The notes under the pieces were generated by a model, which saw nothing but the letters and a program-made list of their open reading frames with translations, ran no database searches and had not been told where the DNA came from. This document shows positions 5,980 to 46,317 of a stretch of DNA of 64,000 nucleotides, one piece after another (position 1 is the stretch's first letter; each line of letters opens with the position of its first letter). Made by a program: the position numbers and the translations under genes. Origin of the DNA: a virus; the IMG/VR virus record IMGVR_UViG_3300019890_000003, positions 1-64,000 of that record; one strand, written 5' to 3'.

Positions 5980-6227
5980 GATACAATCAACACGCTCGCG
6001 CTATTTGCCGGAGGGCCGGATCCGCTGCCATTCGAGGCGATCACAACAAGCGAAATGGTGGTGCCAACATCCGACAGTTGAACCGTGTAAGACACGCCGC
6101 CATCCCATGGCCCCGTGGCGAATATGTTTCCGTTCCGCAAAAGCTGGAAGTTGTAGCCAGTCGGGAAATTAACCCACAACCCCACGCTCCCGGTAAGAAC
6201 CTGGCCATGGACAGCTTGAGTTGTCAT
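5976..6227 (-). CDS. Small Ig-like/beta-sandwich protein
   Basis: SYTVQLSDVGTTISLVVIASNGSGSG pattern; translationally coupled. Confidence 0.5.
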   Translation of the reverse strand: MTTQAVHGQVLTGSVGLWVNFPTGYNFQLLRNGNIFATGPWDGGVSYTVQLSDVGTTISLVVIASNGSGSGPPANSASVLIVS

Positions 6228-6649
6228 CCGGGCATTATCCCAAGGGAAGGTAGAATTGTGTTAACCGGGAACGGCGCGCTCGGGAACGGCACTCTCTCGC
6301 CATCGATGTTGACTTGGAACTTCGTCCCCGTCGTCATCAAGGCGCTGATATTATAGGTTGGCGTGACCTTGTCTGGCGCCTGCACCCTTGTGATAACGAG
6401 GTTGGCGAAATATCCGGAATATTTCTGTTGCGTAAACGCGACATAGAAATCAGGCGCGATCTGCTGCAACACGCTCGTCTTCGCCGGAATGCCGAAGTTT
6501 CCGTAAAACGGAGATTCGCCAAGGTTCAACTTTAAGACCTGGACGAGCGCCGTAAGGAAGACGTATTCGCTGTTGCCGCCGCTATCTGTCTGAACCTCGA
6601 ACCATGATTTTTGCCCGAGTTCATCGGTAACGCGTCCGTAAACTCTCAT
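6224..6649 (-). CDS. Putative baseplate wedge/gp25-like protein in an unusual position
   Basis: MRVYGR...LKLNLGESPFYGNFGIPA motif recalled from genes normally found between the spike and baseplate J. Confidence 0.5.
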   Translation of the reverse strand: MRVYGRVTDELGQKSWFEVQTDSGGNSEYVFLTALVQVLKLNLGESPFYGNFGIPAKTSVLQQIAPDFYVAFTQQKYSGYFANLVITRVQAPDKVTPTYNISALMTTGTKFQVNIDGERVPFPSAPFPVNTILPSLGIMPG

Positions 6650-7941
6650 CAGAACCCCTCTGGGTTCCCAAGCGCAAGCGCAATGGCATAGGTAAAGGTG
6701 TCGAGCAAGTCATCGGCGCGCCTATAGGCATCCTTATCGCCCATGCGAAAACCGGTCACCTGCGTAATGAAATGGTTGCGGCTGACGCCTTTGTACACGA
6801 CCGTCTTATTAAATGCGTATTCGGTGATTTTCACCTTGCCCTGCGTAAAGGCCCCAGAGGCGTTCAGGGCTCGCGCATCCTTCCCGAGCATCGTCAGTTC
6901 GTTTTCGATCGGATGAGCCGCCCAGCCCCGGTTCTTGGCCTGCTGAAGCAGGATTATCCCGGAACCCTTGTCCTCGATCCATGCGCCGGTTGAACCGTGC
7001 CTAGCCCTATGATCGCGCGCTAATTCCTCGAGCCTAACATAAACGCCAGGAAGCCACGTCTCGAGTACAGCTCCTTCGATTTGGATGATGTCCCAATCGA
7101 GCAAAATAAGCGGAGCATTATCGCCAAGGTTATTGACGGCCCAATAGGAGACGGCTGTGCCATCATTTTCCTTACCGTCCTTGATGGCCGTGTCGATAAC
7201 GGCAAAAACCCCGTCGCACCTCGCCGGCGGCGGCAGTGGCTTCCCATCCTTGAACATCAGATCGATAGAGAAAAACGCGACGCCAGACCAATCGATGAAC
7301 TTCGCCAGATACTCCTGCTGGTAAACCAGAGGATGCTCTGTGCGCTGGAGGACCTCTAGATCCTCCGCCGGCAGGTATGGGTTACCGTGGCTTGGCGCCC
7401 AATATTCTTTAAAGCCATGCTCTGGCTCATTGCAGATCTTCCAAAAGAATTGCTCGATATCAATCCCATTGGTGTTGCTGGCGACGATCGTCCGGCCGCC
7501 GTAATCTAGCAGCGTGGGCTTAATGGCGTTGCGCCAAATCGTCATCATGTTGGGGCCGGCGAACGCGGCCTCGTCAATCAGGACAGTGTGATATTTCCTC
7601 GAACGGCCCGCGTACTCGTCATTGAGCGTCCAGAATTCAATCTCACCGCCAGTTACACAGCGTATTATGCCGCCCATCTGCGTGGATTGCTTAATGATAG
7701 GCTTTAGCCGCGCCTCGCACCATTTATAAAATGCCGACAATCTCTTGTAGTCTGGGGCGAAATACCCAACCAGCTTGCCGTCCAAGACATCAAGGCAGCC
7801 AACCGTCCCTAGAAACTCAGTCTTGCCCCATCGGCGCCCGCACCGGAGGATCGAATATCTAGAATCCTCCAAGGCGTCATGCGCTGTTTGCTGCCCCTCG
7901 TGGGCGGTTGGCAATTTGAGAGAGGCTTCTAGAACAAGCAT
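6649..7941 (-). CDS. terL: Terminase large subunit
   Basis: Walker A CGRRWGKT, Walker B VLIDEAA, motif III ASN, RNase H-like VIDTA, IEDKGSG and DDLLD. Confidence 0.95.
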   Translation of the reverse strand: MLVLEASLKLPTAHEGQQTAHDALEDSRYSILRCGRRWGKTEFLGTVGCLDVLDGKLVGYFAPDYKRLSAFYKWCEARLKPIIKQSTQMGGIIRCVTGGEIEFWTLNDEYAGRSRKYHTVLIDEAAFAGPNMMTIWRNAIKPTLLDYGGRTIVASNTNGIDIEQFFWKICNEPEHGFKEYWAPSHGNPYLPAEDLEVLQRTEHPLVYQQEYLAKFIDWSGVAFFSIDLMFKDGKPLPPPARCDGVFAVIDTAIKDGKENDGTAVSYWAVNNLGDNAPLILLDWDIIQIEGAVLETWLPGVYVRLEELARDHRARHGSTGAWIEDKGSGIILLQQAKNRGWAAHPIENELTMLGKDARALNASGAFTQGKVKITEYAFNKTVVYKGVSRNHFITQVTGFRMGDKDAYRRADDLLDTFTYAIALALGNPEGF

Positions 7942-8381
7942 TATTCCTTCGGCGTCGTTTTAAACCCGCCTTCCACTTTGATCACTAATTCCTGGGCTGT
8001 GTTTTGCGGCTGATGGGCGTTCACCCATCCCATCCGACGTTCAAGCCAGAATTCATTAGCTCTCTGTTTAACCTTTAAATCCTTACAATTTTGCATGGTG
8101 TCCAGGAGCGTGCCGGCAGCCTTAAGATTGGCTTCCCACATTCCCTCATTGAGTTCCTTGCGGAAATGCTTCTGTAGGGTGTGCTTCGCAATCCCCTTGC
8201 CATCATTCATATGCTTGGCAATTTCATCTTGTGGTATTCCACAGGCCGCAGCAATCCACACTGCTCTATGCTCACCATCTAATGGCTTGTAGAATGGAGG
8301 GCCTAGCTTCTTACCATCTTCTTCTACGGTGGCCGGTATCGGCTCCAATTCGTGAGGTTGGTTCTTTGGGAATCCTGGCAT
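7941..8381 (-). CDS. terS: Terminase small subunit (HTH)
   Basis: Directly upstream of terL; CGIPQDEIA...TLQKHFRKEL...FWLERRMGW. Confidence 0.65.
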   Translation of the reverse strand: MPGFPKNQPHELEPIPATVEEDGKKLGPPFYKPLDGEHRAVWIAAACGIPQDEIAKHMNDGKGIAKHTLQKHFRKELNEGMWEANLKAAGTLLDTMQNCKDLKVKQRANEFWLERRMGWVNAHQPQNTAQELVIKVEGGFKTTPKE

Positions 8382-8383
8382 AG

Positions 8384-8578
8384 CTAGCAAGTCGGGTTAA
8401 TGCGCGAAAACATATCGGCGAGTCTCTTTTCGTCATCGATGTCTGGCGACATCCGTTTTGATTGACGTACCGCTGCTATCAATACGCGCGGGTGGTATGC
8501 ACCAAAATAAACAACCTTGCCGCTGCATCTGCCACATTTGCACGCGTCGGCATGTTCATCGCGCATCGTCAACTCCAA
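8384..8578 (-). CDS. Hypothetical protein (CxCxxC)
   Basis: Short ORF in an operon context. Confidence 0.4.
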   Translation of the reverse strand: MELTMRDEHADACKCGRCSGKVVYFGAYHPRVLIAAVRQSKRMSPDIDDEKRLADMFSRINPTC

Positions 8579-8759
8579 GAATTCTTAATTCGGCATCACG
8601 AAGGCACTTCGCAATGTGGCATTTCATTTGGAAATCAACCCGTATCAAGCGTATGGCAAAGTCACGTCGTTGCTCCCACTCCGCAATCGTTTGCTTGTAT
8701 CGCCCCTCGATTTCAATCTTCTTGCGAGCGGCTTCCAAGCTAGCGATGGGAGATTCCAC
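8556..8759 (-). CDS. Hypothetical protein
   Basis: Short helical ORF in an operon context. Confidence 0.45.
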   Translation of the reverse strand: MESPIASLEAARKKIEIEGRYKQTIAEWEQRRDFAIRLIRVDFQMKCHIAKCLRDAELRILGVDDAR

Positions 8760-8762
8760 GGC

Positions 8763-9563
8763 TCAAATTCGCTGCAACTGCAAAGACAAGTGCGACGGTG
8801 CTTGATAGACAGGGGTAGGGGGCGTAGGACGACTCGCAATGAAAAAGACGCCGCCTACCGAAGTGAGCAACGAAAGCAACGCGATAATTCCGACTGCGAT
8901 CTGGATCGCCACTGAAGTTCCGCTGTGCGCGATCTGTGTCCTTTGGAATGCTTCGACAATCTTTCTTGAGTCAGCCTCCCCTTGGCCTTGCTGCTTGCCA
9001 CCTGCTATTTTCAAGGCGGCTAAATCGTTTGCCACCTGCACCAAAACTGGATCAGAGACAGAGGCGCGGCCACCTGTTTCGTAGCGGAACTGCTCGACTC
9101 CGGCGAGGCGCTTATCCATCGTGGCCAGCGTCGCCGCGATATTATCTGCAGTTTTATTGATGGTGTCAGAGAGAGATGTGGTGACCTTATCCAACTGCGT
9201 AGAAACCAAATCCGAGGTCGTCTTCATTTGCCCAGTCTGGGTTTCCGAAATCGCCTTGTCGTAATCCTTTTTCAACAGAGCAAGATCATCAATGCGCCGC
9301 CTCTCGGCAACCATTAACGCCTCGAAATGCTTGATTACCCATCCGACTTCAGAAGCGTTAAATCTTTGCCCAGCCGCGTCCAAGTCCCTTTGCGAACGCG
9401 CCTGCGCATCGACAAGCGCAAGAACGTTCTCCGTGGGGTCAATGACTGGCGCTCCTCCAGCATCAACGCCGATGCCTGGGCGGCCAGAGTCGCTGCGGCC
9501 CTTCACGCCATATCCTGAGGCACGCCTGGTTTGCCTTCCTCCCGATGGAGCCATATCAGCCAC
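8763..9563 (-). CDS. Coiled-coil protein with C-terminal TM helix
   Basis: 266 aa; heptad-like core; TM segment IAIQIAVGIIALLSLLTSVGGVFFIA-like near the C-terminus. Confidence 0.6.
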   Translation of the reverse strand: MADMAPSGGRQTRRASGYGVKGRSDSGRPGIGVDAGGAPVIDPTENVLALVDAQARSQRDLDAAGQRFNASEVGWVIKHFEALMVAERRRIDDLALLKKDYDKAISETQTGQMKTTSDLVSTQLDKVTTSLSDTINKTADNIAATLATMDKRLAGVEQFRYETGGRASVSDPVLVQVANDLAALKIAGGKQQGQGEADSRKIVEAFQRTQIAHSGTSVAIQIAVGIIALLSLLTSVGGVFFIASRPTPPTPVYQAPSHLSLQLQRI

Positions 9564-9575
9564 TTAGCTCCCCCC

Positions 9576-9794
9576 CTATCTACAATCTTTCTTCCAATTC
9601 TGGTCGCCTAATTTGCACGGTTTGTGCTTTGGTTTTGCCTTCTCATGCCCCCACCAGCCTGGATAACGTTCCGGCACCGGCCACGGCTTGTCGCCTATCC
9701 CCACATAATCATGACCGTAAACACAAATGTGGCGCCAATCACATAGCCACATGTCGGCAGCGAGGATCAGCGGGATAATCAATGGCCAATCCAC
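9576..9794 (-). CDS. Small membrane/secreted protein
   Basis: Hydrophobic N-terminus. Confidence 0.4.
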   Translation of the reverse strand: MDWPLIIPLILAADMWLCDWRHICVYGHDYVGIGDKPWPVPERYPGWWGHEKAKPKHKPCKLGDQNWKKDCR

Positions 9795-9997
9795 GCGTGC
9801 TTGGCGATTTTCGCGGCGATCTTTTTGACGTCCTCGATCGGTATGCAGATGACCGTGCTGTTGCCGACCATCGAGATCGTGAGCGGCTCGCCGTCGATCT
9901 TGACGGCGCCACCATAGATTTGATCGCGGATTATATCCTCGAGGTCCCCAAACGGAACGCGGACCTCGGCCTTGCGCTTCGGCTTATCCTTAGCCAT
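9779..9997 (-). CDS. Hypothetical protein
   Basis: Coupled ORF, 72 aa. Confidence 0.5.
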   Translation of the reverse strand: MAKDKPKRKAEVRVPFGDLEDIIRDQIYGGAVKIDGEPLTISMVGNSTVICIPIEDVKKIAAKIAKHAWIGH

Positions 9998-10242
9998 CAG
10001 AACTTCGGCACCTTAAGAGTGCCGCTAGATGCACCGCCAAGCGCGCCGGTCAACAGCACTACAATCATGTAGGCCGCGTAAAGCAGAATGCACACCAGGA
10101 TCACAACCAAGACAATCCGGATTAGCGTCATGAATGGTTCGCCGATGTACGGAGCCGCTAAGGCTAGCAATTGCTGCAAGGCCCACCACAAAACACCACA
10201 AATCACGAGAGCCGCGATGATGGTGAATGCCGTCATAATCAT
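9997..10242 (-). CDS. Two-TM membrane protein
   Basis: Two long hydrophobic segments. Confidence 0.6.
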   Translation of the reverse strand: MIMTAFTIIAALVICGVLWWALQQLLALAAPYIGEPFMTLIRIVLVVILVCILLYAAYMIVVLLTGALGGASSGTLKVPKF

Positions 10243-10243
10243 T

Positions 10244-10306
10244 TTAGATTCTCCCAAGAACTACCAGGATTATAAGAATGACGATGATGAAGCCGATGAT
10301 TGACAT
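10244..10306 (-). CDS. 20-aa hydrophobic micropeptide MSIIGFIIVILIILVVLGRI
   Basis: Read by hand; fills the intergenic gap; below the ORF-track cutoff. Confidence 0.4.
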   Translation of the reverse strand: MSIIGFIIVILIILVVLGRI

Positions 10307-10314
10307 GTCATGCC

Positions 10315-10608
10315 TTAATCACAGACCCACACACCATTGATCCAGCATGAAGGATACCAAGCTCCGCCTCGCCAGCCGCCATGGCCGCCGTGCCAATGGC
10401 CGCCTTCGTGGCCATGCCAGCCTTCATGGCCTCCGTGCCAACCACCGTGGCCGCCTTCATGGCCTCCGTGCCAACCACCGCCTCCGCCGTGCTCGTGGCC
10501 TCCACCGCCACCCTCATGGGCTGATGCGGTCATGCCAAGCGGCATTGCGCTCATGGCCACGGTTAGGAATAGAGCTACCATAAAATTACGCATTTTGGTC
10601 TCCGTCAC
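10315..10608 (-). CDS. Secreted Gly/His/Trp-rich low-complexity protein
   Basis: Signal peptide ending ASA; GGHEG/GWHG repeats; C-terminal CWINGVWVC. Confidence 0.65.
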   Translation of the reverse strand: MTETKMRNFMVALFLTVAMSAMPLGMTASAHEGGGGGHEHGGGGGWHGGHEGGHGGWHGGHEGWHGHEGGHWHGGHGGWRGGAWYPSCWINGVWVCD

Positions 10609-10913
10609 TTGTCTTCGTTAACGCCATGCTCAGCATCAATCTTGGCCTGCAGAGCGGTGATTTTCGCATCCAACTTATCTTTCTGAGCCTGCAACTCATT
10701 CATTTGCTTCTCTAGCTTAGAAGCGACACGAAGCTCAATCGGAGACTTGGTCTCGTGGCTCGCGCCTTTGTCCACCTCAGTCGTTTCTGTCGTGGATTTT
10801 TCCGTGGTCGTGGTGTCCGTAGACACCCCAGATTTCTTTGACGCCAAATCCGCCGCAAAGACTGGGCCTATCGCAAGCGCGACGATAAGTGTGCTAACCG
10901 CGAGAGTACGCAT
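10605..10913 (-). CDS. Secreted protein with coiled coil
   Basis: Signal peptide MRTLAVSTLIVALAIGPVFA; SD GGAG. Confidence 0.65.
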   Translation of the reverse strand: MRTLAVSTLIVALAIGPVFAADLASKKSGVSTDTTTTEKSTTETTEVDKGASHETKSPIELRVASKLEKQMNELQAQKDKLDAKITALQAKIDAEHGVNEDK

Positions 10914-11002
10914 TTTAGTCTCCTAGTTACAGATCGCCCCATGCACATATGGCAGCCATTGAAACGACAAAAATCGCAAGAATTTCGAGCTTGGTCGCAA
11001 CG

Positions 11003-11962
11003 TCAGGTATTGACATTGCAATCCTCCTCGCGCTCGCGCATGTAATTGTCCCATAGGCGCTCCAGATCGGGCTTGTTGCCAGCCCATTCGATCACGCCCC
11101 ACTGATTCTTCTTTAAATCCGTTATTGGATTGAAATCGTTCTCAAGAAGCACGCGCCACCGGAAGTTGTATTTTCTATCGCACTTCCGACCATGGAATGG
11201 ATGTTCAATTGTCTGATGACAGTATCCGAGCTTCTTATTGACCTGAGATAATGCCCGCGCTTCCCATGCTCTCAAGAACTTCACATAGTCTGCATTAATA
11301 CCATTTGGTAAAGATGCGCCGCACCGTCCAATCAGAGCGAGCGCCATGTGATGATCGCCGGCGCCGCACGCGCCTAATTCGAACAATCCGCCGATGCGGC
11401 CGATAACGCCAATCTGCCAGGCCCAGCAATAACCGGGATGAGGATAGGCATAGGGGCTATTAGTTAGAATCAGGGTCTTTGGATCAAACCTAGGGATAAC
11501 CCTGCTACCCTTATGGTAGAGGTATGCGAACGATTGAAACGCCGCGAGATGCTCGTCATTCGGCCCGAGATCGTAACAGGTCTTCCATGGTTGAACTACG
11601 GGGTATAATTGAAGATCCTTCAGCGCTTCGCTAGCCCAGCCGCTTTTCCGGAAAATTATATCGGCATCGAAGAAAGCCACGTAATTTGCGGTATGCGGGA
11701 GGCGCGACATTCCAATATTTAAGAGATTCTCTTTCGACCACGCCATTGTCGTAGCGCGCACTGGCACATGCGTCACGCGCTCGTGTGCCCCCATATCGTC
11801 TAGTTCATAGTCTCCAGCGCCATAGGCGCATTCAACTATCGTGATATCAACTTGGGGCTCGCTCAACCAGGAAGCTATAGCGGCGCGCACTAGCGCAATG
11901 CGCGATTTCCAACGTATAGGGTTAGACACCGCCGTCACAATGTGAAGCGTGGCGTGGCGCAT
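11003..11962 (-). CDS. GT-A fold glycosyltransferase-like protein
   Basis: ITIVEC, WSKENLLNIG, FFDADI (DxD), GAGDHHM, HPFHG. Confidence 0.65.
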   Translation of the reverse strand: MRHATLHIVTAVSNPIRWKSRIALVRAAIASWLSEPQVDITIVECAYGAGDYELDDMGAHERVTHVPVRATTMAWSKENLLNIGMSRLPHTANYVAFFDADIIFRKSGWASEALKDLQLYPVVQPWKTCYDLGPNDEHLAAFQSFAYLYHKGSRVIPRFDPKTLILTNSPYAYPHPGYCWAWQIGVIGRIGGLFELGACGAGDHHMALALIGRCGASLPNGINADYVKFLRAWEARALSQVNKKLGYCHQTIEHPFHGRKCDRKYNFRWRVLLENDFNPITDLKKNQWGVIEWAGNKPDLERLWDNYMREREEDCNVNT

Positions 11963-12136
11963 TTCGGCCTTCTTTTCTTACGAGTTATTGATCGACGGTC
12001 ACGGTTCCTGCGTCATAACAAGCCGTCCCCTCGGGGCACAGAACCGGAGGATCTGAGGCAAAAATCATTCGTATAGCCATGATCGCAAATGCCAGTAAAA
12101 CAAACCAAATCATGTCACTCGGACGTGGGGCACGTA

Positions 12137-19317: not shown

Positions 19318-20364
19318 TCATGGCGGGCCATAGAAGCTAACACTGCTTGCTTGGATGGCATTGTCGATAGCGTCAGCCGTTTGCGACGCTACGATGTAGC
19401 CCTCATAAAAGGCGCCTGGAGAAGCATTACTTCCATCGCCGCCCTGCATCATAGCGATCCCCCCTTCAAGAAGCAGCGGGGTATGATCGCCTGGCAAAGC
19501 CACATTGTTATTCCAGGTTATTAAAGCCCCGGTTTGCGCATGTCCAGTTTTTCCTGTCCATACGGTTGCCCCATCTGTCTTCGCAATACCATTTTCGATA
19601 GTCGCACCCGCATAGCCGGTGCCAGACAAAAATAGGCCGCCATTCTCGATATCAATCGACTGCAATGGATTTGGATTTCCCCCCAGACCCAAGGCGAACA
19701 TGTGACCGTTGCCGTTATCGGAATAAGTACTCTCGCCCTCGCCAAAATCAAAGCAGCAGTTGTTGACCGAAAAGGTGCCGTTAATCGTCCAATATTCCGT
19801 CACAGGAACGCTAGCACCAGTGACTGGTGTGCCTGGCATTCCGCCATTGTTTGGATCGCCATTCCGTGTCCCAGTGCTATAACCAACCGCTGGCCGCTGA
19901 GGTCCATCTAATGTGCCGTTAAGCTCCTTCTCGGCATTGAAAACTATTTTGCCATTGGTAAGAACAATCCTGCGAACAAGCGCAGAGCTTCCTGTCGCTC
20001 CAAACCCAGTATTGGCAATAAAATCGAGATGGCTAGGCCCTTGGTCATAGAGCTTGGACATAAAGCAGGTTGTAGACGTGCAGAACGTGTCATAAGCCGC
20101 GTGATCTACGATGCCGTTGATCATGCCAATATCGAGAGTCGTGCTATCACTAGCCCGCACCGCTTGAAACAACTTACCGGTGTAGCTGTGGCTAAGAGCA
20201 CGATTCAACGAATAAGCCACCACCGCCGGCTTGTTCGCCAAAGCCAGAATATCCATCGGCCACTTGTTTGTTTTGCTACCATACTGATGAGTCATAATCG
20301 TAGCATGCGCGCCAACGCCAAGAATGCAGACTAGCAATATTAGAAGAAGGCTTCGCAGCTTCAT
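19318..20364 (-). CDS. Secreted alpha-L-arabinofuranosidase B (GH54)-like protein
   Basis: Signal peptide; AYSLNRAL, RASDSTTLDIG, FCTSTTC...LYDQ, NNCCFDFGEGE, DIENG, GGDGSN...GAFYEG match AbfB catalytic-domain motifs. Confidence 0.75.
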   Translation of the reverse strand: MKLRSLLLILLVCILGVGAHATIMTHQYGSKTNKWPMDILALANKPAVVAYSLNRALSHSYTGKLFQAVRASDSTTLDIGMINGIVDHAAYDTFCTSTTCFMSKLYDQGPSHLDFIANTGFGATGSSALVRRIVLTNGKIVFNAEKELNGTLDGPQRPAVGYSTGTRNGDPNNGGMPGTPVTGASVPVTEYWTINGTFSVNNCCFDFGEGESTYSDNGNGHMFALGLGGNPNPLQSIDIENGGLFLSGTGYAGATIENGIAKTDGATVWTGKTGHAQTGALITWNNNVALPGDHTPLLLEGGIAMMQGGDGSNASPGAFYEGYIVASQTADAIDNAIQASSVSFYGPP

Positions 20365-22030: not shown

Positions 22031-23440
22031 TCAGTGCCACACACCGACCCAATCGACGAATAGGTCGTACTTCCCAGATGGAGGCGGGAGCGAAACCCAC
22101 CCACCGCCGGATGCAAGCTCCAGCATCGGCGCCCATAGCGGCTTCACTGCGGAATTAGGGGAGCTGTATTGCGGAAATGAATCGCATTTCAGCTGCACCT
22201 CGTCGAAATATTCACAGACAGTGCCGGTTGCGCTGCCAGAATTCGAAATCTTCATCCCGACAGTGTGCCAATCCCAGGTGAGATCCGCGCCCGACCCAAG
22301 AGGATACCCGGCATACCCGCCATTGGGGCTAGCTGGAAAGAACGCTGGCGCATATGCGTGCGTAAATGCCTGGTGATAATGGATGTCATTCCCGAACATT
22401 TCGGTCATGTCCATCTCCATGCCGCCATGAGTCTGATCGCTCAACTCAAGCATCCAGAAGGATGGCCACGTACCGCCTGAACAGGTATTATCGCCTGGGA
22501 CGTTACAGAAGGAGTTCGGGATCAGAATACGGGCGTCATAGTATCCGTCTGTTAGGCCAGGCGCAGAGGCTGATTTATCAGGATATCCTGTGCCGAGGAT
22601 CCCACACCGTTGCTTACGGCCAAAGCCGTAGGGATCGACATAAGCAGGATCGAAAGTGTTGCGGATACGCAACCCGCCCTGTGGTAGAATGGTAAATGGA
22701 TTGTACCCATTGACACTGTCGGTGTGCTCATTGGCGCAATCGCCGAAGTCTTGTCCGGTGAAGAGCCCTTCATACCATTTGAAACCATCAGATGCCGTTG
22801 GGGCAGTGCAGCTAGGCCACGTACCGGTGCCTGGCTTGCATGGTGTTGAGTTGAGCGTCGTGAAATGATCGCTGAAGGCGAGGGTCATTCCTGACGCTGG
22901 CGCAGGGGTTGGGATGGCAGGACGTGTGCCAGCTACAAAGAGCTTATACCTGCCCTGCAAATGGACTGTAGGACTACCGCCAGGCACGACATCGTAGGCA
23001 TTGAATTCCACAGTGAGCGGGCCTGCTGGCTCGGCGGATAGGTCGAGCAGACCGGTGAACATGCTGCCTGAGCCTTGTGTAAGCCTCACGGCCATCGCAC
23101 CATGCGTCCATACTTCGACATTGAGCGAGCCCAGCGCCTTGATAACGATCTGTTGCGGGCTGGCCGATACCGTCGCATTCGCGTCGGTGATGCCGAGATC
23201 CAACAAGGCTGGTGACGAAATCTGATTAGACGTCACGACATTGGGTGAGCAGGGTAAAATGATCCCCATCTGGTTGGTGGTGGCCGATGACGAGGAGCAT
23301 GTTGGGACCGGCTGACAAAGCGGCACGGTGATCTGCGTATAGCCGCTAGAGCACTCGGCGTGCGCCTCAGGGAACGCGAAGAAATGAACATACCCCAGCG
23401 CTATGAGGAGGAATAAAACCGCGATGAAGTATTTCAGCAT
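22031..23440 (-). CDS. Secreted GH16-like glycoside hydrolase
   Basis: Signal peptide plus Cys tag; FSDHF, GTWPSFWML, EMDMTE (ExDxxE), WHTVG, VDWVGVW. Confidence 0.75.
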   Translation of the reverse strand: MLKYFIAVLFLLIALGYVHFFAFPEAHAECSSGYTQITVPLCQPVPTCSSSSATTNQMGIILPCSPNVVTSNQISSPALLDLGITDANATVSASPQQIVIKALGSLNVEVWTHGAMAVRLTQGSGSMFTGLLDLSAEPAGPLTVEFNAYDVVPGGSPTVHLQGRYKLFVAGTRPAIPTPAPASGMTLAFSDHFTTLNSTPCKPGTGTWPSCTAPTASDGFKWYEGLFTGQDFGDCANEHTDSVNGYNPFTILPQGGLRIRNTFDPAYVDPYGFGRKQRCGILGTGYPDKSASAPGLTDGYYDARILIPNSFCNVPGDNTCSGGTWPSFWMLELSDQTHGGMEMDMTEMFGNDIHYHQAFTHAYAPAFFPASPNGGYAGYPLGSGADLTWDWHTVGMKISNSGSATGTVCEYFDEVQLKCDSFPQYSSPNSAVKPLWAPMLELASGGGWVSLPPPSGKYDLFVDWVGVWH

Positions 23441-25089
23441 GTGTGCGGGCTCGATGGCGCCGTGCCAGTTTGGGGAATTACGAAGCCAGGCGGTCCCCAC
23501 GTCCGATCGAAGTCCGTGAAGCTCACTGGCGCGCTGAAGACTGGCGACGTCGGATCGATGACATACGACCAGCATGTCAACTTCGGGTCTCCCGTGGTTG
23601 GGCTGGCATCGGTATAATTGCCGCCTGAGCTAAGCGTACCGCTCCCATAATTGTGATAGAAATTCGCCGTGATCGTCGGCGCGGTAGGCGGAGACCCACT
23701 CAGAATATTGTAGCCGCCACCGGCGGCGCCGCTGATGACGATGTTGTGCTCGACCTGATTGCCGTCCATGTTCGAATTAACGGGGCATGTCGTGGTTTGA
23801 AACGCCACAATGCTCTGTCCGAGAGTCGATAGATCGATCAGGTTGTTGTTCACCCGAACGTTACGGCCGCCATGGAAGAGCATGGCGGTATTCGAACCAT
23901 TGCGCCCAGTGATAACATTCCCGGTCGCGAGGATGTCCGTGGCGCAGTCATCCGCATACATGGCCGAGCCGAAGCCCGAACCGAGGGTGGCAAACGTGTT
24001 TGCGTCGCGGATGTAATTGTTGGTCCATTGGGCGCCGGTGCCGGTTTGCCTGGTGGCGTCGACTTGGTAGATCCCGCTACAATCCGCCTGCGCGGTGCAG
24101 GTGTTCCAAATCGCCATGTGGTCGATGTGGGGATTGGTGAGGACGCTACCGCTGCCAGGGTTGGTTATGTTTATGCCCCATGAATTGGTATCATGGATAA
24201 CGCCATGCGAAATCGTCATGCCGACAGGACCGTAGAAGGATATTCCGCCTGGCGCTGAGAAGTTGGAGTTCGTGGCGTACTCGTTAAAGATGATGAAATC
24301 TTTGAGGATGACGTTCGTATCGCCGCCCGTCGAATGGAAGCCGCTGTGCTGGAAATCGTGCAGCGACAGGCCGTCGATCGTCACATTTGTGGTGTGATCG
24401 AAGTTGAAGATGAAATGCAGGCCGTTGCCGAAGGCCGTCGAGCCGCCCGTAAGGTCGGCGCTGTCATAGCCGTCCGGAGGATAATAGGACCACGTCTCGC
24501 CACTATCGGCCGACGTGAGGGCTATCCCACAGGTAATGCCGGTGCCGCCGTCGCAATTCTGGACTGGCGTTGGGAAGCTGTAGCTGCCGGCGCGGATGTA
24601 TGTGGTTAGGATCGTGCCGCTCGCGCGCATGGCCGCTTGGGCTTTGCTAAGCGTGGCGAATGGCGCAGCTAGAGTCCCAGCATTGCTATCGCTGCCATTA
24701 GTGGCAACGTAGAACGCAGATGCCAAAGCTGGATTCACGGTCAAGGCAAGGGACGCCGTGCCTGTCCCGCCAGCGTTCGTCGCGCTCTCGGTCGTATTCG
24801 TGGTGCCGGTGACCGTGGGCGTGCCGGAAATAAGGCCGGTGCTGGTGTTGACTGACATGCCAACGGGCAGGGGCGATGCGCCCCAGCTCGTAGGGGTATT
24901 CGTGGCCGTGATCTGGAAACTGCACGAGGTGTTAACCGTGCAGCTTCCTGATGCCGGGCTCGTAATCACCGGCGCCGGCGTGCTGTTTAATTGGCACAAC
25001 GGCACTGTGACCGCAGTGTATCCAGCCGCGCACTCGGCAAAGGCGGGGCCGGCTAGCGCAACAAGGAAGGCTGCGAGAATACCTCTCAT
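23434..25089 (-). CDS. Secreted He_PIG Ig domain plus right-handed beta-helix protein
   Basis: Signal peptide plus Cys tag; LPVGMSVNTSTGLISGTPT; FYVATNGSDSNAGTLAAPFATL; Asn-ladder repeats. Confidence 0.75.
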   Translation of the reverse strand: MRGILAAFLVALAGPAFAECAAGYTAVTVPLCQLNSTPAPVITSPASGSCTVNTSCSFQITATNTPTSWGASPLPVGMSVNTSTGLISGTPTVTGTTNTTESATNAGGTGTASLALTVNPALASAFYVATNGSDSNAGTLAAPFATLSKAQAAMRASGTILTTYIRAGSYSFPTPVQNCDGGTGITCGIALTSADSGETWSYYPPDGYDSADLTGGSTAFGNGLHFIFNFDHTTNVTIDGLSLHDFQHSGFHSTGGDTNVILKDFIIFNEYATNSNFSAPGGISFYGPVGMTISHGVIHDTNSWGINITNPGSGSVLTNPHIDHMAIWNTCTAQADCSGIYQVDATRQTGTGAQWTNNYIRDANTFATLGSGFGSAMYADDCATDILATGNVITGRNGSNTAMLFHGGRNVRVNNNLIDLSTLGQSIVAFQTTTCPVNSNMDGNQVEHNIVISGAAGGGYNILSGSPPTAPTITANFYHNYGSGTLSSGGNYTDASPTTGDPKLTCWSYVIDPTSPVFSAPVSFTDFDRTWGPPGFVIPQTGTAPSSPHTC

Positions 25090-26363
25090 CTGAATGTCAC
25101 GCCAATGCAAGTCATGGCGCCAGAATTACCAGCCGTGAACGTTTGCGCTACGGGAGCTGACGCAGGCGCGTAATCTCCCCATCTATAAAAATCAGCGATC
25201 CCGCTTCCGGCTGTTACAACATGCGACAGCGTTGCCGGTGACAATGCCGTTGGAGAGCCGAGATCGTTCATCCCGACATAGAATGCCCACTCTCCTGACT
25301 GCCATGTTTCGCTTATTGCCGGCACGACGCATGTCGTTCCATTTGACGTGTTTGCCTTACTCGATACTGCCTTAACCGCAATCGACCCAGACGACGTTTT
25401 GTAATTCCTGATATTCCCGTCAATTGCCGCATAGGCCAGACCGGAACCAGGCATCGTTACCGTGTAAGATGCAGGCTCAGAACTTGCAGTACGAGAAAAG
25501 AGTGCTGTCGTGAAGTTCCCATAAACTGGATCAAGTGCATTAGCTAGGCGGGCAACCACCGTCCACCCTGCCGGGGTGTTTGGCGTCTCGACAGGATCGG
25601 TTAAGGCCGTCTGCGAAGTGACGACCATAAACATTAAATCGCCATTGGCGACGCCAGCAGGCGTGCTCAATACGACGGACTGCGAAGCCGAAGCATTATA
25701 TCCGCCGTCAGCGCCGAAGGAAATTGTGCCAGAGCCGGCCGCCGCGATGGTCAACGCCAGGTTTTGAGTTCCCGTCCCCGCCCCATTGGTTGCACTAAGG
25801 CCGACGGTGCTCGAACTAGCTGCCGTTGGCGTACCGGAGATAGTACCGGTCGAAGTGTTAATCCCGAGAGGAGCCGGAAGATTGCTTGCGCCATAGCTGG
25901 TCGGCATATTGGTTGCGGTAATATGATATGTAAATCCAGTGCCCACCGTGCCAGACGCCGTGGTGGGGCTGTTGATAACCGGTGGCGAGCCAGCGGCGGC
26001 GATAGTCAGGGCCAGCGTCTCATTGCCGGTGCCCGTCCCATTCGTCGCGCCTAGCGTGACGTTGCCGCTAAAGGGGGCAGTGGGAGTGCCTGATATGAGA
26101 CCGGTCCCCGTATTGACCCCAAGGGGTGATGGAAGCCCGGTAGCACTGTAGCTAGTGGGCGAATTGGTTGCGGTAATCTGGTAGCTGAAGGCCATCCCGG
26201 CGGTGCCGCTAGCGGTTGACGGACTAGTGACGACGGGCGCGCCAGTGGTGTTTTGCTGGCAGGCAAAGACGTTACTCAGCTGCGTGTAACCCGTAGCGCA
26301 CTGGGCATTTGCTCCCACCGTAAGCGCGATAAGTGCCGTGAAAGCAATGGCTAAGGACTTCAT
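25086..26363 (-). CDS. Secreted protein with two He_PIG Ig domains plus a beta-sandwich
   Basis: Signal peptide plus Cys tag; two ITATN.PTSY.A..LP..LG.NT.TG.ISGTPT units. Confidence 0.75.
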   Translation of the reverse strand: MKSLAIAFTALIALTVGANAQCATGYTQLSNVFACQQNTTGAPVVTSPSTASGTAGMAFSYQITATNSPTSYSATGLPSPLGVNTGTGLISGTPTAPFSGNVTLGATNGTGTGNETLALTIAAAGSPPVINSPTTASGTVGTGFTYHITATNMPTSYGASNLPAPLGINTSTGTISGTPTAASSSTVGLSATNGAGTGTQNLALTIAAAGSGTISFGADGGYNASASQSVVLSTPAGVANGDLMFMVVTSQTALTDPVETPNTPAGWTVVARLANALDPVYGNFTTALFSRTASSEPASYTVTMPGSGLAYAAIDGNIRNYKTSSGSIAVKAVSSKANTSNGTTCVVPAISETWQSGEWAFYVGMNDLGSPTALSPATLSHVVTAGSGIADFYRWGDYAPASAPVAQTFTAGNSGAMTCIGVTFR

Positions 26364-26397
26364 TGTGTAGATCCTTTGAGTAAACCGGAATTAGTAC

Positions 26398-26426
26398 TTG
26401 ACTATCGAGGGCAAATGCCTTAGGTT
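26398..26426 (+). promoter_or_regulatory. Sigma70-type promoter with operator in spacer
   Basis: TTGACT-17-TAGGTT; AGGGCAAATGCCTT at 26408-26421. Confidence 0.6.
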
Positions 26427-26508
26427 AGCATGAAGGCGGGGAAGCAGAGTCAACGAGGGCGGTTGCCGCCCCAAACACTCAGCCCCGTCGACAATTGGAG
26501 AAACGGAG

Positions 26509-26712
26509 ATGACTTTTCTTGAAACCCTCGAACCGCTTGTGCACGCGGCAGAGCGATATGCACAACTAACTGAAATCCGCGAACAGCGCGGCGCGGGAGA
26601 TTTCGTCGAGAAAGATTCCGGCAAGCGTATAACTTTATGGACGGCTCAAAAAGAGGCAGCCGATGCGCTTTGTGCCGCTGCTATCGAATTCTCAAAATGG
26701 GGGAGGCAATGA
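26509..26712 (+). CDS. Early hypothetical protein
   Basis: SD GGAG; first gene after the promoter. Confidence 0.6.
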   Translation: MTFLETLEPLVHAAERYAQLTEIREQRGAGDFVEKDSGKRITLWTAQKEAADALCAAAIEFSKWGRQ

Positions 26713-26939
26713 CCCAATTTCATGAAGGCCAAGAGGTGGAAGTAGCGCCGTTATCCGAAATGTTTGGCGCGTGGCGCAAGGCAAAGATCGTTGAAGTTGA
26801 TCAACGAGCCGTGCAAACCTCGCCGATAAAACATCTAGTCGAGTTCGCTGATGGTACGCGCGGCGTGTTCGATGCGGATCACATCAGATCTCTTACCTAC
26901 AGAGGTCTAACTGCCCGTAACACGACAGGCATTTACTGA
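26709..26939 (+). CDS. Tudor/SH3-like small protein
   Basis: SD GGAGG; FHEGQEVEV...WRKAKIV...LVEFADG. Confidence 0.6.
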   Translation: MTQFHEGQEVEVAPLSEMFGAWRKAKIVEVDQRAVQTSPIKHLVEFADGTRGVFDADHIRSLTYRGLTARNTTGIY

Positions 26940-26941
26940 GT

Positions 26942-27049
26942 TGACGTTTCGGCTTGCCGGGTTCTTAGCCTCGCCCGGCAAAGCGAAGCGCCAGAAACGG
27001 AGCCGCCCAAGACTGGGAGATTGCGCGGATAGTTTGCCCGCGACGCTTC
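26942..27049 (+). repeat. Structured intergenic element, copy 1
   Basis: TGACGTTTCGGC-TTGCCGGG..CCCGGCAA-AGCGAAGCGCCAGAAACGGAGC...TGCGCGGATA...TGCCCGCGACGCT. Confidence 0.7.
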
Positions 27050-27151
27050 ACAACAAAGGCCGGACCGACGCGCCACGCGGACAACGCATTAGCACCGCTA
27101 GCCGCAGCGCGCCGATCCGTAACTCAACGAAACTAGGAGATTAACAAGGAA

Positions 27152-27430
27152 ATGAAAACACGCGAACAAAAGTACGAAGCCATTTGGGATCGGGCAATCA
27201 TGCTCGACTCCAAAAACCAAACAGAGACATTCTTGGACCTTGCCAAATGGCTCAACAAGAATGGATTTCGTAACCAAGCGGGGAAGCCATATAGGCCAGT
27301 CCCGCGTGGTGTCGCTAAGGTTGTCGCCTCTGCATGGACATATGCAGCCGACAGGTTCGGAGAGAAGAAGGCGCTCCCGATTGCAAATGCCTTCACTGGC
27401 TCAACCGGGGAATATTCTTGGACTGAGTGA
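27152..27430 (+). CDS. Small protein with a recombinase-type DNA-binding motif
   Basis: LAKWLNKNGFRNQAGKPY resembles the serine-recombinase RD subdomain. Confidence 0.55.
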   Translation: MKTREQKYEAIWDRAIMLDSKNQTETFLDLAKWLNKNGFRNQAGKPYRPVPRGVAKVVASAWTYAADRFGEKKALPIANAFTGSTGEYSWTE

Positions 27431-27535
27431 CGTTTCGGCCTGCCGCTTGTGGGCGGCAGAGCGAAGCGCCAGAGTTTCAAAATCCGGCGGGCAATCTCCC
27501 TTGCGGATACAAGGCGGCGGAATCTTTGTCGCTTC
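27428..27535 (+). repeat. Structured intergenic element, copy 2
   Basis: TGACGTTTCGGC-CTGCCGC..GCGGCAG-AGCGAAGCGCCAGA...TTGCGGATA...CGCTTCAC. Confidence 0.7.
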
Positions 27536-27557
27536 ACCTTAACCATAAGAGGAAATC

Positions 27558-27821
27558 ATGACAACCAAAACTAACGTACCAGCCGTACACCTAACCCCAA
27601 AGCAACAATCCGTCATGAACGGCGCGCTGAGGGACACGCTTCTCAGCGAGCGCGCCATTGCCCGTTTAGAGGCGGCTGCGGAGGCCGTACACGCCCAAGC
27701 CAATGGGGGACGGGGATTTCAGGCTGTCAGCTCAAAGGAGGGCTTCGCGGCCACTATTAAGCACGGCAAGACCCTAATCGAAATTCAGGGCGATAGCTTT
27801 GCTGTAAGGCAAACGGATTGA
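27558..27821 (+). CDS. Early hypothetical protein
   Basis: SD GAGG; 87 aa. Confidence 0.6.
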   Translation: MTTKTNVPAVHLTPKQQSVMNGALRDTLLSERAIARLEAAAEAVHAQANGGRGFQAVSSKEGFAATIKHGKTLIEIQGDSFAVRQTD

Positions 27822-27831
27822 GGAGAAGAAC

Positions 27832-28035
27832 ATGAGCGACATGCGAGAGAAGATTTATCATGACCTTTTTGATGCTCAGCATCTGCTGAAAGCGCTAAAG
27901 TTCATTCTCGATGAAACCGAGGAGGGCACCGATAGTGGGCTGATGATGTCCAGTGTCGCAGACGCGATCATGGCTAAATTGGAGCAGATCGAGATCCGTC
28001 TTGACGCGAAGACTGATATCAGCCTTGCAGCCTAA
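27832..28035 (+). CDS. Early acidic hypothetical protein
   Basis: SD GAGGAG; ends in LAA, an ssrA-like degron. Confidence 0.6.
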   Translation: MSDMREKIYHDLFDAQHLLKALKFILDETEEGTDSGLMMSSVADAIMAKLEQIEIRLDAKTDISLAA

Positions 28036-28123
28036 TGACGCAAGCCCATGGGCATCATGGTGCCCATGCACGAGCGCCAGAAATGGAGCAGCTGATGCGC
28101 GGATAACAGTGCCCGCGACGCTC
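28036..28123 (+). repeat. Structured intergenic element, copy 3
   Basis: TGACG..CATGGGCA..TGCCCATG..GAGCGCCAGAAATGGAGC...TGCGCGGATA...TGCCCGCGACGCT. Confidence 0.6.
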
Positions 28124-28334
28124 GGCTTAAAACCCAGGCATCCACTGCAACGGGTGCCTGGGCGCCTAGCAAGCTAGGTCTTAATGCCCGACGGCCGGGG
28201 TACGATTCGCAAAACCGAAATTACGCTGTCGAATTATGGAATGTCGTAGCATTGATAACAACTTATGGAGCGATTCGGCGCTAGAGCGCAACGAAAAGCC
28301 ACATCCACACGATATCGCTCATTGACATCCAGTT

Positions 28335-28405
28335 TGGCGGGGTTGCCGGTTAGCTACGCCGGTCCTACGCGGGCTCCCGCGCCGTGCTGCTCACACTACA
28401 ACCCC
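28335..28405 (-). ncRNA. Degenerate tRNA-like RNA with encoded CCA and no canonical anticodon loop
   Basis: GGGGTTG-TA-GTGT(GAGCA)GCAC-G-GCGCG(GGAGCC)CGCGT-AGGA-CCGGC(GTAGCTA)ACCGG-CAACCCC-G-CCA. Confidence 0.65.
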
Positions 28406-28414
28406 AGATATAAA

Positions 28415-28657
28415 TTAATCCCCGCACTCGCGGCGATACAGCTCGCAATTGCCCTGGCCCTCTTCGCCTAGCTCATGCTTATGGGCGCAAGCCGCGCGCA
28501 ATTCCCGACACCTACCCTCGGCATGATCCCTGTGGTGTTCATGCTGTAATGGCTCAACTCTGAGCCCATTAGGGCCAATCTCAAATTCCTGTGAGAATGC
28601 CGACAGCGGGAAGGCAAACGCGGCAGCAAGGATCAGGGCGAGGGCGTATGAACGCAT
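28415..28657 (-). CDS. Small secreted Cys-rich protein
   Basis: Signal peptide; CRELRAAC.HK.ELGEEGQGNC..YRREC. Confidence 0.65.
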   Translation of the reverse strand: MRSYALALILAAAFAFPLSAFSQEFEIGPNGLRVEPLQHEHHRDHAEGRCRELRAACAHKHELGEEGQGNCELYRRECGD

Positions 28658-28743
28658 GGATTATTTCCCAACAAATGGCGCGAGGGCGGCAACCAAAAAG
28701 CAGATTGCCGTAACCAAATACATGATATCTTGGAAGCGTTGCA

Positions 28744-29316
28744 CTACGCAGCCTTATCGGTTGCGATAATATGTTCCGGATAAGCAATCGCATTCCATTT
28801 TGCTACCGGATCAACTAGCCAATCATCGCTCCAATGGCCAGGTGGATGCGGCAGCTTGATTTCGTTTATCGAACGCAACGCACTGTGCGGTACAAAATAG
28901 GCGCCCTCGCGTTCGCCGTGAGAATGCAACCATTCCGCTCGGCGCGCGTCTTGCGCCATTATCCAGCCCCATACGATGAACATAGGGCCTGTGCCGGTTA
29001 CGAGAGAGTAGGGACGATCTTTCGAATCTTTTCGTACAATCAACTGATATTCGTGTTGCGTCCTAGTTCTAACCTCAAAGTCACCGACGTCCGGATCATT
29101 AGGCCGATTAACTGATTTCCGCCATTGCAACCCTGTCGCTTTGGCAAAACAGCATTCGCCGCGCGCGCCTGTCCGATGCAAAAACTCGCCGCCCGTCGCG
29201 CCGTATTTATCCTCGCTATGAAGGCGCTCTGATTCGGCTTGCCTCAAATTACCGATCTCGTCGGCCTCCGACATCTCAGCAGGCGTAAGGCTCCAAGGCT
29301 GAGCAATGAATTTCAA
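28744..29316 (-). CDS. PD-(D/E)XK nuclease-like protein
   Basis: GE...PDVGDFEVRT pattern. Confidence 0.5.
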   Translation of the reverse strand: MKFIAQPWSLTPAEMSEADEIGNLRQAESERLHSEDKYGATGGEFLHRTGARGECCFAKATGLQWRKSVNRPNDPDVGDFEVRTRTQHEYQLIVRKDSKDRPYSLVTGTGPMFIVWGWIMAQDARRAEWLHSHGEREGAYFVPHSALRSINEIKLPHPPGHWSDDWLVDPVAKWNAIAYPEHIIATDKAA

Positions 29317-29682
29317 ATTGGATGGGCTTTCTAAGGGCTTTTGCCCACCGGGAGGTCAAAAAAAGGCCCGCGTGTGAGATCGCGAGCCATAAGTTTGGCT
29401 TGGGAGGAAATCACGGAACGGCCAGCGCATCAAGCGCAAAGAGGCACGGTGCGTTTCTGACACAAAGCATAGGCAAAGGCCCATGTCAAGCGGTATCGAT
29501 AGGCTTTTGCCCAACGTCATCAGATTTCACAATTACCGGGCGTTGCCGCCACGGGAATAGCTCTTGCTTGTAGGTTGCCGCCATAATCACAACCTTGGCT
29601 ATTACGCCGAAGCACATGGCGGCAAAAGCCAACCCCATCAGAATGCCACAGCCGGCACCAACCAAAAAGCCAATGACGAATT

Positions 29683-45095: not shown

Positions 45096-45310
45096 AAATT
45101 ATAGTCGCAGCAGCGACCGTCGCCATCACCACGACTGGTGTGCCGCATGCCGATCCGCGTGGCCCTATTACCGACGATTTCAAGCGAGGGGCGTGCTACG
45201 TTCTCGATCTATGGAATCAGACACTTCGTATGCCTGACGGCACGAAGATGCAGGGAGATATCACGCTTTCTGGCAAAAACTCATTCACCTGCCCAATGGC
45301 TCCACAATGA
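45092..45310 (+). CDS. Small secreted-like protein
   Basis: Hydrophobic N-terminus; two Cys. Confidence 0.45.
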   Translation: MKIIVAAATVAITTTGVPHADPRGPITDDFKRGACYVLDLWNQTLRMPDGTKMQGDITLSGKNSFTCPMAPQ

Positions 45311-46317
45311 TTCGCCCAATGCCGCCAAACCTTTACCTGGAACGCAACCGTCACGGGACGGCCGTGTTCTATGTTCGCGTCGGGAAGGGGCCACGGATAC
45401 GTGTGCGTGGGGCTTACGGGTCATCTGAATTTGCCAGCAATTACAACACTGCCATCCTCGGCATAGCGCCACAGAGCGGCCCCGTGACGGCCACGGGCAC
45501 CCTAGGATGGCTCATCGAGCGTTACGAGGATTCCAGCGCCTGGGAGAGGCTCTCCGCAGCCACAAAGAGGCAGAGGGGCTATGTCTTCAAGACCGTGGCC
45601 AAGCGGGCAGGGGATACGCCGCTAAGTTCCATCACAGCGAAGGTTATACGGCAGGGCGTCGAGGATCGCGCCAAGACGCCATTCGCCGCCAATGGTTTTC
45701 TGAAAACGATGCGCGTGCTGTTCCAATGGGCCAAGCGCGCGCAACACGTTGATGCGGATCCGACCGCAGGCGTAATGGGCTTTCCTAACAAAACTGAGGG
45801 ACACCACACATGGACGGACGAGGAGATTTCGTGTTTCGAATCGCGGTGGCCAGTCGGGACCCGACAGCGATTGGCACTCTCTATTTTGCTCTTTACGGGG
45901 TTGCGCCGTGGGGATGCCGCAGTGCTAGGACGGCAACATATCAAGGGTGGTGTGATCTCATTGCGAACCACAAAGACCGGCCAGCAAGTCACTATCCCAA
46001 TCCTCCCTCAGCTTGCCGAGATTATAAATGCGACGAAGACGGGTGACCTCGCCTTCATTGCGACGGCGGCCGGCCGGCCAATGACGGCGGAGAGTTTCGG
46101 ATCTTGGTTCCACGAGGCGTGCAAGGCGGCTGGGGTGCCAGGATCCGCGCATGGGTTGCGCAAGGCGGGCGCGACGCGCGCGGCGAACAACGGCGCGACG
46201 ACGGCTCAATTGAATGCCATTTATGGATGGACTGGCGAGAAGATGGCGTCGCTCTATACGAGGAATGCCGATCGTGCGCGGTTGGCGCGGGACGCAATGA
46301 GGAAGCTAGTGAAATGA
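45307..46317 (+). CDS. int: Tyrosine integrase
   Basis: TGLRRGD (R), KTG (K), HGLRK (HxxR), YGW, LYT (Y) catalytic motifs. Confidence 0.95.
   Translation: MIRPMPPNLYLERNRHGTAVFYVRVGKGPRIRVRGAYGSSEFASNYNTAILGIAPQSGPVTATGTLGWLIERYEDSSAWERLSAATKRQRGYVFKTVAKRAGDTPLSSITAKVIRQGVEDRAKTPFAANGFLKTMRVLFQWAKRAQHVDADPTAGVMGFPNKTEGHHTWTDEEISCFESRWPVGTRQRLALSILLFTGLRRGDAAVLGRQHIKGGVISLRTTKTGQQVTIPILPQLAEIINATKTGDLAFIATAAGRPMTAESFGSWFHEACKAAGVPGSAHGLRKAGATRAANNGATTAQLNAIYGWTGEKMASLYTRNADRARLARDAMRKLVK

Follow-up and report, generated by a model that had tools for sequence, protein, structure and literature searches.

The window, that is, the whole stretch of DNA analysed here, comprises bases 1–64,000 of a 77,681-bp virus record that has been judged complete. 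Segments 26942–27051, 27428–27537 and 28036–28126 of its plus strand are three copies of one element. They are positioned in a separate 1.7-kb plus-strand unit, which contains five small open reading frames (ORFs) and is flanked by two blocks of minus-strand genes. The portal protein of the phage is only about 47% identical to that of any cultured phage, and the genes for RecT, YqaJ and an ordinary tyrosine integrase are located outside the array.

The small-gene array and the three copies of the element

In the ORF list, the array begins with a 67-residue ORF of gene family F15 (26509–26712, +), for which searches of Pfam and PHROG returned no match, and a homolog of which sits between two elements in contig L265. 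The second ORF (26709–26939, +; family F1) starts at an ATGA overlap and has a weak Agenet/Tudor-like match below the cutoff (Agenet, E = 4e-4). Homologs of F1 adjoin elements in L264, L267, L254, L266, L248 and L251. The DNA of the third ORF (27152–27430, +; 92 residues) is 78% identical to that of its ortholog in L080, the closest relative of the window phage. The fourth ORF (27558–27821, +; 87 residues) belongs to family F2, members of which flank elements in L129, L246, L127, L258, L266 and L265. No match to the last ORF (27832–28035, +; 67 residues) is present in L080, which carries a different sequence there. All five ORFs lack a firm family assignment, and ARAGORN detected no tRNA or tmRNA in the region 26000–29500.

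The minus-strand genes that diverge from the array (22031–26363) encode proteins with He_PIG Ig-like domains and a beta-helix, and a GH54-like arabinofuranosidase is encoded further on (19318–20364). Together, they are a glycan-active set rather than classic tail genes. On the opposite side of the array, directly after copy 3, a hairpin and a subsequent T-run (TTTTAA) can be read by eye from the minus strand at 28126–28162. It is probably the terminator of the converging minus-strand unit and not a part of the element, although a simple terminator scan did not list it.

Copy 1 (26942–27051, +) is the full form of the element, as recognized from its sequence and fold, and matches the covariance model R1 with 99 bits (E = 9e-21). 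Its UGA (26942–26944) is preceded by the stop codon of the upstream gene (26937–26939). The stem P1a (26945–26951 paired with 26984–26990) is separated by an internal loop (26952–26953 and 26982–26983) from the inner stem P1b (26954–26961 paired with 26974–26981). The hairpin is followed by the linker CCAGAAAC (26991–26998), GGAGC (26999–27003), the stem P3 (27024–27028 paired with 27038–27042), and the segment A2 with the sequence GCUUC (27045–27049). An optional third module, the long hairpin D3 (27061–27119, +), lies between copy 1 and the SD sequence of the next gene.

Copy 2 (27428–27537, +), also recognized from sequence and fold, matches the model with 60.9 bits (E = 7e-12). Its UGA (27428–27430) doubles as the stop codon of the third ORF; the hairpin P1 (27428–27471) and A2 (27531–27535) are intact, and domain 2 is degenerate. 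Copy 3 (28036–28126, +; E = 3.8e-8) is a terminal variant without a downstream gene. The TAA stop codon at 28033–28035 is immediately followed by the UGA of the element (28036–28038), P1a is weakened, domain 2 is intact, and the 3′ end reads GCUCGGC instead of GCUUCAC. An ortholog of copy 3 in L080 and L264, which is also terminal, has the same inner stem and is 83% identical.

Model R1 was built from ten copies, with copy 3 outside the seed. When it was applied to the full genome, 13.7 kb of which lie beyond the window, it identified exactly three copies, all in this one array. Folding of P1 alone yielded z-scores of −3.05 and −3.15. An earlier note on this DNA had described three elements at stop codons, inner stems that are unlike in sequence yet pair with each other, and a second conserved block, which copies 1 and 3 retain and which has degenerated in copy 2; the sequence, the fold and the table of segments agree with this description. 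The extent of the element, however, had been underestimated, as it ends in GCUUCAC and copy 1 is followed by the hairpin D3.

Known types of expression signals were sought around the element. A scan of the region 26200–28600 for the sigma70 promoter consensus found none in any element. An intrinsic terminator scan of the same region listed none on the plus strand, leaving the array without a recognizable terminator; P1 is followed by CCAGAAAU and not by a U-run. A candidate sigma54 −24/−12 sequence noticed by eye on the reverse strand was rejected, as its GG-to-GC spacing is 11 instead of 10 and it is located in variable sequence. Mini-ORFs inside the element (Met-Arg-Gly-stop; Met-Glu...) were discarded because their frame and length are not conserved among the copies, and so was programmed read-through of UGA-C, for which the extension peptides differ and stop at random.

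Anatomy and pairing of the element

The element has a length of 50–180 nt, typically roughly 100 bases, and is composed, from 5′ to 3′, of UGA, P1a, GC, P1b, WG, segment B, CCAGAAAU, GGAGC, an insert, AAUG, P3, AC, A2, and AC. The 5′ arm of P1a has the sequence CGUUUCG or the variant CCCUUCG, and segment B is CGAAGCG. P1b is a variable stem of 7–9 bp with a tip of 2–95 nt, and the two-nucleotide bulges GC (5′) and WG (3′) that flank it form a 2 × 2 internal loop. P1 contains 2 + 7 + 7–9 bp arranged around a mismatch and the 2 × 2 loop, of which the 7-bp base is conserved. It is an irregular hairpin equivalent to roughly 20 bp, or about two helical turns, with a central internal loop and a median stability of −24 kcal/mol. 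In the second domain (D2), the variable insert after GGAGC is 8–70 nt long, P3 consists of CGCGG, a loop and CCGCG, and the 3′ end is formed by A2 (GCUUC) within the terminal GCUUCAC. The insert often contains GUCCUAGG with a palindromic CCTAGG core (for example in L129, L080, L250, L267 and L248), which suggests sub-families or a further recognition site.

Near-invariant blocks of 8 to about 20 nt (GAAGCGCCAGAAAUGGAGC, AAUGCGCGGAUA and CCCGCGACGCUUCAC) are retained in the element while the flanking genes diverge by 15–30%. Truncated, duplicated and chimeric forms are nevertheless numerous. Short forms keep P1 and have B joined almost directly to GCUUCA, units consisting of domain 2 only occur in tandem, and there is also a minimal remnant. 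The short forms and the tandem domain-2 units keep the A:B pairing, including an A–U compensatory pair. Hairpins of the D3 type follow elements in L431 (2215–2275) and L393 (~5628–5718), precede the SD sequence of the next gene in L266 (~1783–1850) and L253, and occur once more in L248. They share the core GCGGACAMCGC, and their distal stem differs between copies yet stays paired.

The upper stem of the P1 hairpin is shown to be maintained by compensatory changes. Across 60 distinct copies, in alignments that were fitted to the model and thus favour pairing, 95% of cells pair, compared with 37–52% when the partners are slid. Double changes are present in 17 of 24 pairs, and none of 500 shuffles reached the observed values. 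Among the 32 full-length copies, double changes affect eight pairs of P1 (seven in P1b and one in P1a) and one pair of P3, and P1a, P2 and P3 are otherwise nearly invariant in sequence. The slid controls and a de novo RNAalifold run speak for P1b and P3 being real. The earlier note had described the elements as covarying, which holds strongly for the upper stem of P1 and modestly for P3; the remaining helices are conserved in sequence.

The same independent RNAalifold run indicated a second possible fold. It pairs B with A2 (GAAGCG:CGCUUC) through six Watson–Crick pairs in 33–34 of 34 copies, and it contains a CC/GG mini-hairpin, the loop variants of which (GAAA, GUAA, GCAA and GUGA) are all of the GNRA type. 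This second option exists because the element repeats its 5′ end, GACGUUUC, directly at its 3′ end, GACGCUUC; A2 thus copies A1, and B can pair with either of them, so that the topology is like that of an attenuator. Since P1a, P2, the mini-hairpin and B:A2 hardly vary in sequence, covariation is blind to the choice between the two folds. Among 31 copies folded as free RNA, the minimum free energy structure contains A1:B in 22 and B:A2 in three. When the stop codon and the following 12 nt are occluded, mimicking a terminating ribosome, B:A2 forms in 14 of the 31.

All copies have the same orientation as the flanking ORFs and are located in arrays of small ORFs, with 3–6 copies per array. In 36 of the 60 copies, the UGA of the element itself terminates an upstream open frame of at least 40 codons. 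Of the 49 copies with an upstream ORF, 46 have its stop codon no more than 9 nt away from P1a. The next start codon, provided with an SD sequence, is usually 9–30 nt past the end of the element. Because the stop codon abuts P1a and the start codon follows closely, the element fills the gap between the stop codon and the SD sequence. P1 is similarly stable on both strands, the sense strand being the more stable in 27 of 56 copies; therefore, strand asymmetry cannot be used to argue for RNA over DNA. A role at the RNA level is instead indicated by the orientation, by the register to the stop codon and SD sequence, and by a conserved U·G pair in P1a and a G·U pair in P2, which fit the sense strand.

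Element family and cassette boundaries

The family was collected by pattern scans of viral, metagenome and genome collections, the results of which were filtered with R1. This yielded 67 matches, 60 of them distinct, in about 30 environmental phage contigs and one metagenome-assembled genome (MAG). Unseeded copies in other contigs reach E = 1e-18. The MAG, labelled Alphaproteobacteria, is the only bacterial carrier, and its element is single-copy. The clade carrying the element is a small group of temperate phages, so far from environmental contigs only. The search against Rfam that the earlier note had proposed gave no match for the whole window at gathering thresholds, and permissive settings returned only three matches at chance level (E = 1.4–7.3), all outside the elements. 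The region had no blastn match among 50,697 phage records, and a full-text search of papers did not find the 15-mer core. Scans of viral and genome collections with short patterns of 14–17 nt gave mostly chance matches, and all 80 genome loci listed from a loose pattern scan were negative with R1. A further degenerate scan gained only one contig, which makes the family too narrow for a covariation test of the conserved helices.

In the relatives, a Cro/CI-type HTH gene precedes the arrays, and ERF or YqaJ recombination genes follow them. The designation of the region as an early cassette in the earlier note therefore suits the relatives, whereas the array of the window is a plus-strand unit of its own. 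Maps of gene families show that the arrays share families, that the order and number of these families vary, and that gene content varies between conserved flanks. Neither a consistently linked binding protein nor a consistently adjacent recombinase emerged from the array gene maps.

The element is shown to mark cassette boundaries at which genes are gained, lost and permuted. The comparison of relatives for gene gain and loss, which the earlier note had suggested together with a role of the elements as recombination anchors, identified such a case by blastn of L247 against L261: L247 contains a 2.1-kb two-gene insertion bounded by two elements, and L261 has one chimeric element at this site. 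The insertion (1199–3270, +) encodes a 207-residue ORF and a 482-residue GHKL-type ATPase (HATPase_c_3). PADLOC, applied to the larger cargo genes, gave only a weak N-terminal GHKL-ATPase match to the defence protein MzaB, and the insertion may represent defence-type cargo.

A cassette of family F21, accompanied by a P1 with a 54-nt tip, provides a second case. In L247 the gene precedes the hairpin and the cassette is located after F10; in L261 the hairpin precedes the gene and the cassette is located between F23 and F20. It is thus circularly permuted and relocated, as is expected from excision of a circle and its re-insertion through the element. A rare variant is found both in a minimal remnant in L261 and in the element that L247 carries at the corresponding site. 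The inferred junctions are scattered, those of the 2.1-kb insertion being within P1 and those of the relocated cassette near A1, B/A2 and the minimal remnant. In L080, two elements are arranged in tandem without an intervening gene. Together with the variable content between conserved flanks, these rearrangements uphold the idea of recombination anchors. The F21-family protein encoded in L126 (637–951) and L261 is a secreted protein with Gly-Gly-Trp-His repeats behind a signal peptide, and other cassettes encode small lipoprotein-like or membrane proteins.

Proposed function of the element and comparison with known systems

The best reading of these observations, to which we assign a probability of about 0.5, is that the element is an intercistronic mRNA punctuation module, acting by an RNA mechanism that we infer, and at the same time a homology patch for cassette shuffling. 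The element would be part of a polycistronic mRNA that covers small accessory genes, and P1, the base of which contains the stop codon, would punctuate the transcript. Cleavage by an RNase III-type double-strand-specific endonuclease, or the blockage of an exonuclease, would provide the upstream cistron with a 3′ hairpin that protects it. After A1 had been cut away or covered by a ribosome, B (GAAGCG) could re-pair with A2 (CGCUUC), which would close domain 2 and provide a defined 5′ leader just before the next SD sequence. Each cassette would thereby carry a standard, context-independent expression signal. It is proposed that the repetition of this 50–180-nt element in direct orientation offers a homology patch for shuffling by the RecT, ERF or YqaJ recombination systems of the phages.

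Several observations count against the punctuation module. Occlusion yields B:A2 in only about half of the folds, domain 2 of copy 3 has no obvious job because no gene follows it, and the hairpin alone is no proof of an RNA role over a DNA role, since P1 is equally stable in the antisense strand. Furthermore, RNase III does not require this degree of primary-sequence conservation, which points to some sequence-specific partner. Strong conservation can be explained by such a partner or by multi-state pairing, and two other explanations consequently stay alive. One of them, possible but doubtful, is a ribosome-actuated coupling switch without cleavage: the terminating ribosome would melt A1:B, and the formation of B:A2 would alter access for downstream initiation, so that translation of each gene would depend on, or be insulated from, that of the preceding gene. 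The position of the UGA next to P1a (the stop codon itself in 36/60 copies, within 9 nt in 46/49), the complementarity of B to the direct copies A1 and A2, and the shift of the minimum free energy structure to B:A2 upon occlusion (14/31 compared with 3/31) are all in line with such a switch, and multi-partner pairing predicts near-invariant segments. However, neither conformation clearly masks the SD sequence, and A2 forms just a weak 4-bp pairing with SD-like sequences. Conservation of the UGA extends to copies in which it is not the upstream stop codon and could be purely structural (UG:CA), and the terminal copy has no downstream gene to control. The other explanation, which we consider rather unlikely, is a platform for a sequence-specific phage or host protein, either a nut- or put-like signal to RNA polymerase or a translational repressor operator attached to each cassette. 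Near-invariant blocks of 8 to about 20 nt amid genes diverging by 15–30% would be expected of a protein-binding site, the GNRA mini-hairpin is reminiscent of boxB, and the arrays of the relatives are positioned in an early operon after a Cro/CI-type gene; nevertheless, R1 has no match in HK022 and Rfam none in the window, an array has 3–6 copies instead of a single one for the operon, the scan of the array detected no intrinsic terminators that would call for antitermination, and no candidate binding protein consistently linked to the arrays was found.

Explanations at the level of DNA have still less to recommend them. If the element were a site of site-specific recombination, P1 would be extruded in the manner of attC, and a recombinase would move ORF cassettes at core repeats in A1 and A2. 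The conserved base, unpaired spacer and variable 2–95-nt tip of P1, its equal stability on either strand, the direct repeats GACGYUUC that flank each ORF, and the circular intermediate implied by the permuted cassette are compatible with this idea. Yet it would not account for domain 2, for D3 or for the constant register with stop codon and SD sequence, the inferred junctions do not share one position in the element, the arrays have no recombinase as a consistent neighbour, the attC cores RYYYAAC and GTTRRRY are absent, and there is no integron-type integrase, the sole integrase being 17 kb away and far below the IntI and Xer cutoffs; we regard a DNA recombination site as very improbable. A selfish or neutral repeat that gene conversion homogenizes, with a hairpin that is a functionless by-product of its palindrome, would suit the narrowness of the family (about 30 contigs) and the many truncated, duplicated and chimeric forms. 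It is highly unlikely in view of the compensatory changes that hold P1b and P3 paired despite sequence divergence, the strict orientation and register to stop codon and SD sequence, and the GNRA type kept in every loop variant; moreover, useless direct repeats that risk gene deletion should be purged. There is also a small chance that the element is an active RNA device, a ribosome-sensing switch or self-processing RNA, forming the junction of a recombinase-independent, integron-like cassette system of phages. If so, one portable unit would supply each captured ORF with a stop signal, with a boundary of the transcript and with a standard leader.

The punctuation module resembles the attC sites of integrons in that it lies directly after the ORF of a cassette, often including the stop codon, and in that its hairpin combines a conserved base with an unpaired spacer and a variable tip; in both systems the small cassettes are promoterless and arranged in arrays, and circular intermediates are implied. 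Unlike attC, the element has no R″/R′ core motifs: its 5′ arm is GACGTTTCGG and its 3′ arm CGAAGCGCC, and RYYYAAC/GTTRRRY are present on neither strand. IntI and attI are also missing, the additional domains are tied to the downstream ribosome-binding site, and the crossovers are not at a single point. The only tyrosine recombinase of the window (45307–46317) has best NCBIfam matches of 22–43 bits, compared with cutoffs of 220–371 bits. A dedicated attC-like recombination system is therefore unlikely.

Of the RNA signals, the put RNA of phage HK022 forms two stem-loops just downstream of the early promoters (putL and putR). By contrast, the element is present in 3–6 copies per array, each after a gene, and R1 has no match in the whole HK022 genome; nothing speaks for the put-like antitermination that the earlier note had considered. 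R0.5, R1 and R1.3, the RNase III processing sites of the T7 early region, are also repeated between small early genes. When folded, they form gap-filling hairpins with a lower stem that starts from the stop codon, an internal loop and an upper stem of ~9–10 bp, and P1, an irregular hairpin between cistrons, likewise spans about two helical turns and has an internal loop. The element differs from the T7 sites in its additional D2 and D3, in the A1/B/A2 triple, and in belonging to a temperate phage with an integrase and RecT. A search of positions 1–12000 of T7 with the covariance model gave no match at E values up to 10. The RNase III-type processing put forward in the earlier note is compatible with the anatomy of P1 at the stop codon, whereas homology to the T7 sites, as to HK022 put, is excluded at the level of the covariance model.

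The start-associated sequences (SAS) of Cluster K mycobacteriophages are 13-nt motifs overlapping the ribosome-binding site, and in the extended form (ESAS) they are joined by imperfect 17-bp inverted repeats, the spacer of which varies. These sequences precede unrelated genes, are conserved across genomes and have an unknown function (Pope et al. 2011, PMC3203893). Like the element, they are repeated in sense orientation, shortly before the starts of non-structural genes. However, SAS have no link to an upstream stop codon, no multi-domain structure and no reported cassette shuffling, and their sequence is unrelated.

Accessory regions of phages have the fastest turnover of genes for defence, counter-defence and host interaction, and the way in which single small genes can be swapped without breaking expression has been detailed only for a few systems, such as integrons and the promoter-early stem-loops (PeSLs) of T4-type phages. 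A PeSL combines a strong sigma70 promoter with a terminating stem-loop, and PeSLs also give rise to mini-circles (Arbiol et al. 2010, PMC2839356; Comeau et al. 2014, PMC4122927). Both PeSLs and the element are short repeated intergenic modules with a stem-loop that extend from the upstream stop codon to the SD sequence or start of the next gene, and both surround small ORFans in plastic regions, where they mediate indels and replacements. As with PeSLs, the repeats described here are found at the boundaries of indels and replacements between related phages. Unlike PeSLs, the element contains no promoter or terminator consensus, and the spacing between its conserved blocks is variable; its hairpin is strong (median −24 kcal/mol), with no U-run after it. 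Its length is two to three times that of a PeSL, its several domains can pair in alternative ways, it shares no common sequence with PeSLs, and it belongs to temperate phages of GC-rich environmental bacteria. If the proposed RNA processing or switching is correct, the element would be a natural genetic insulator like those built by synthetic biologists, and it would be a marker for hypervariable cargo islands in uncultured phages. PeSLs are the nearest precedent in function and genome ecology, and the fold of the element is new; the family would represent a second, structurally unrelated phage solution to the same task, in the form of a portable stop-to-start connector with a conserved multi-domain RNA fold.
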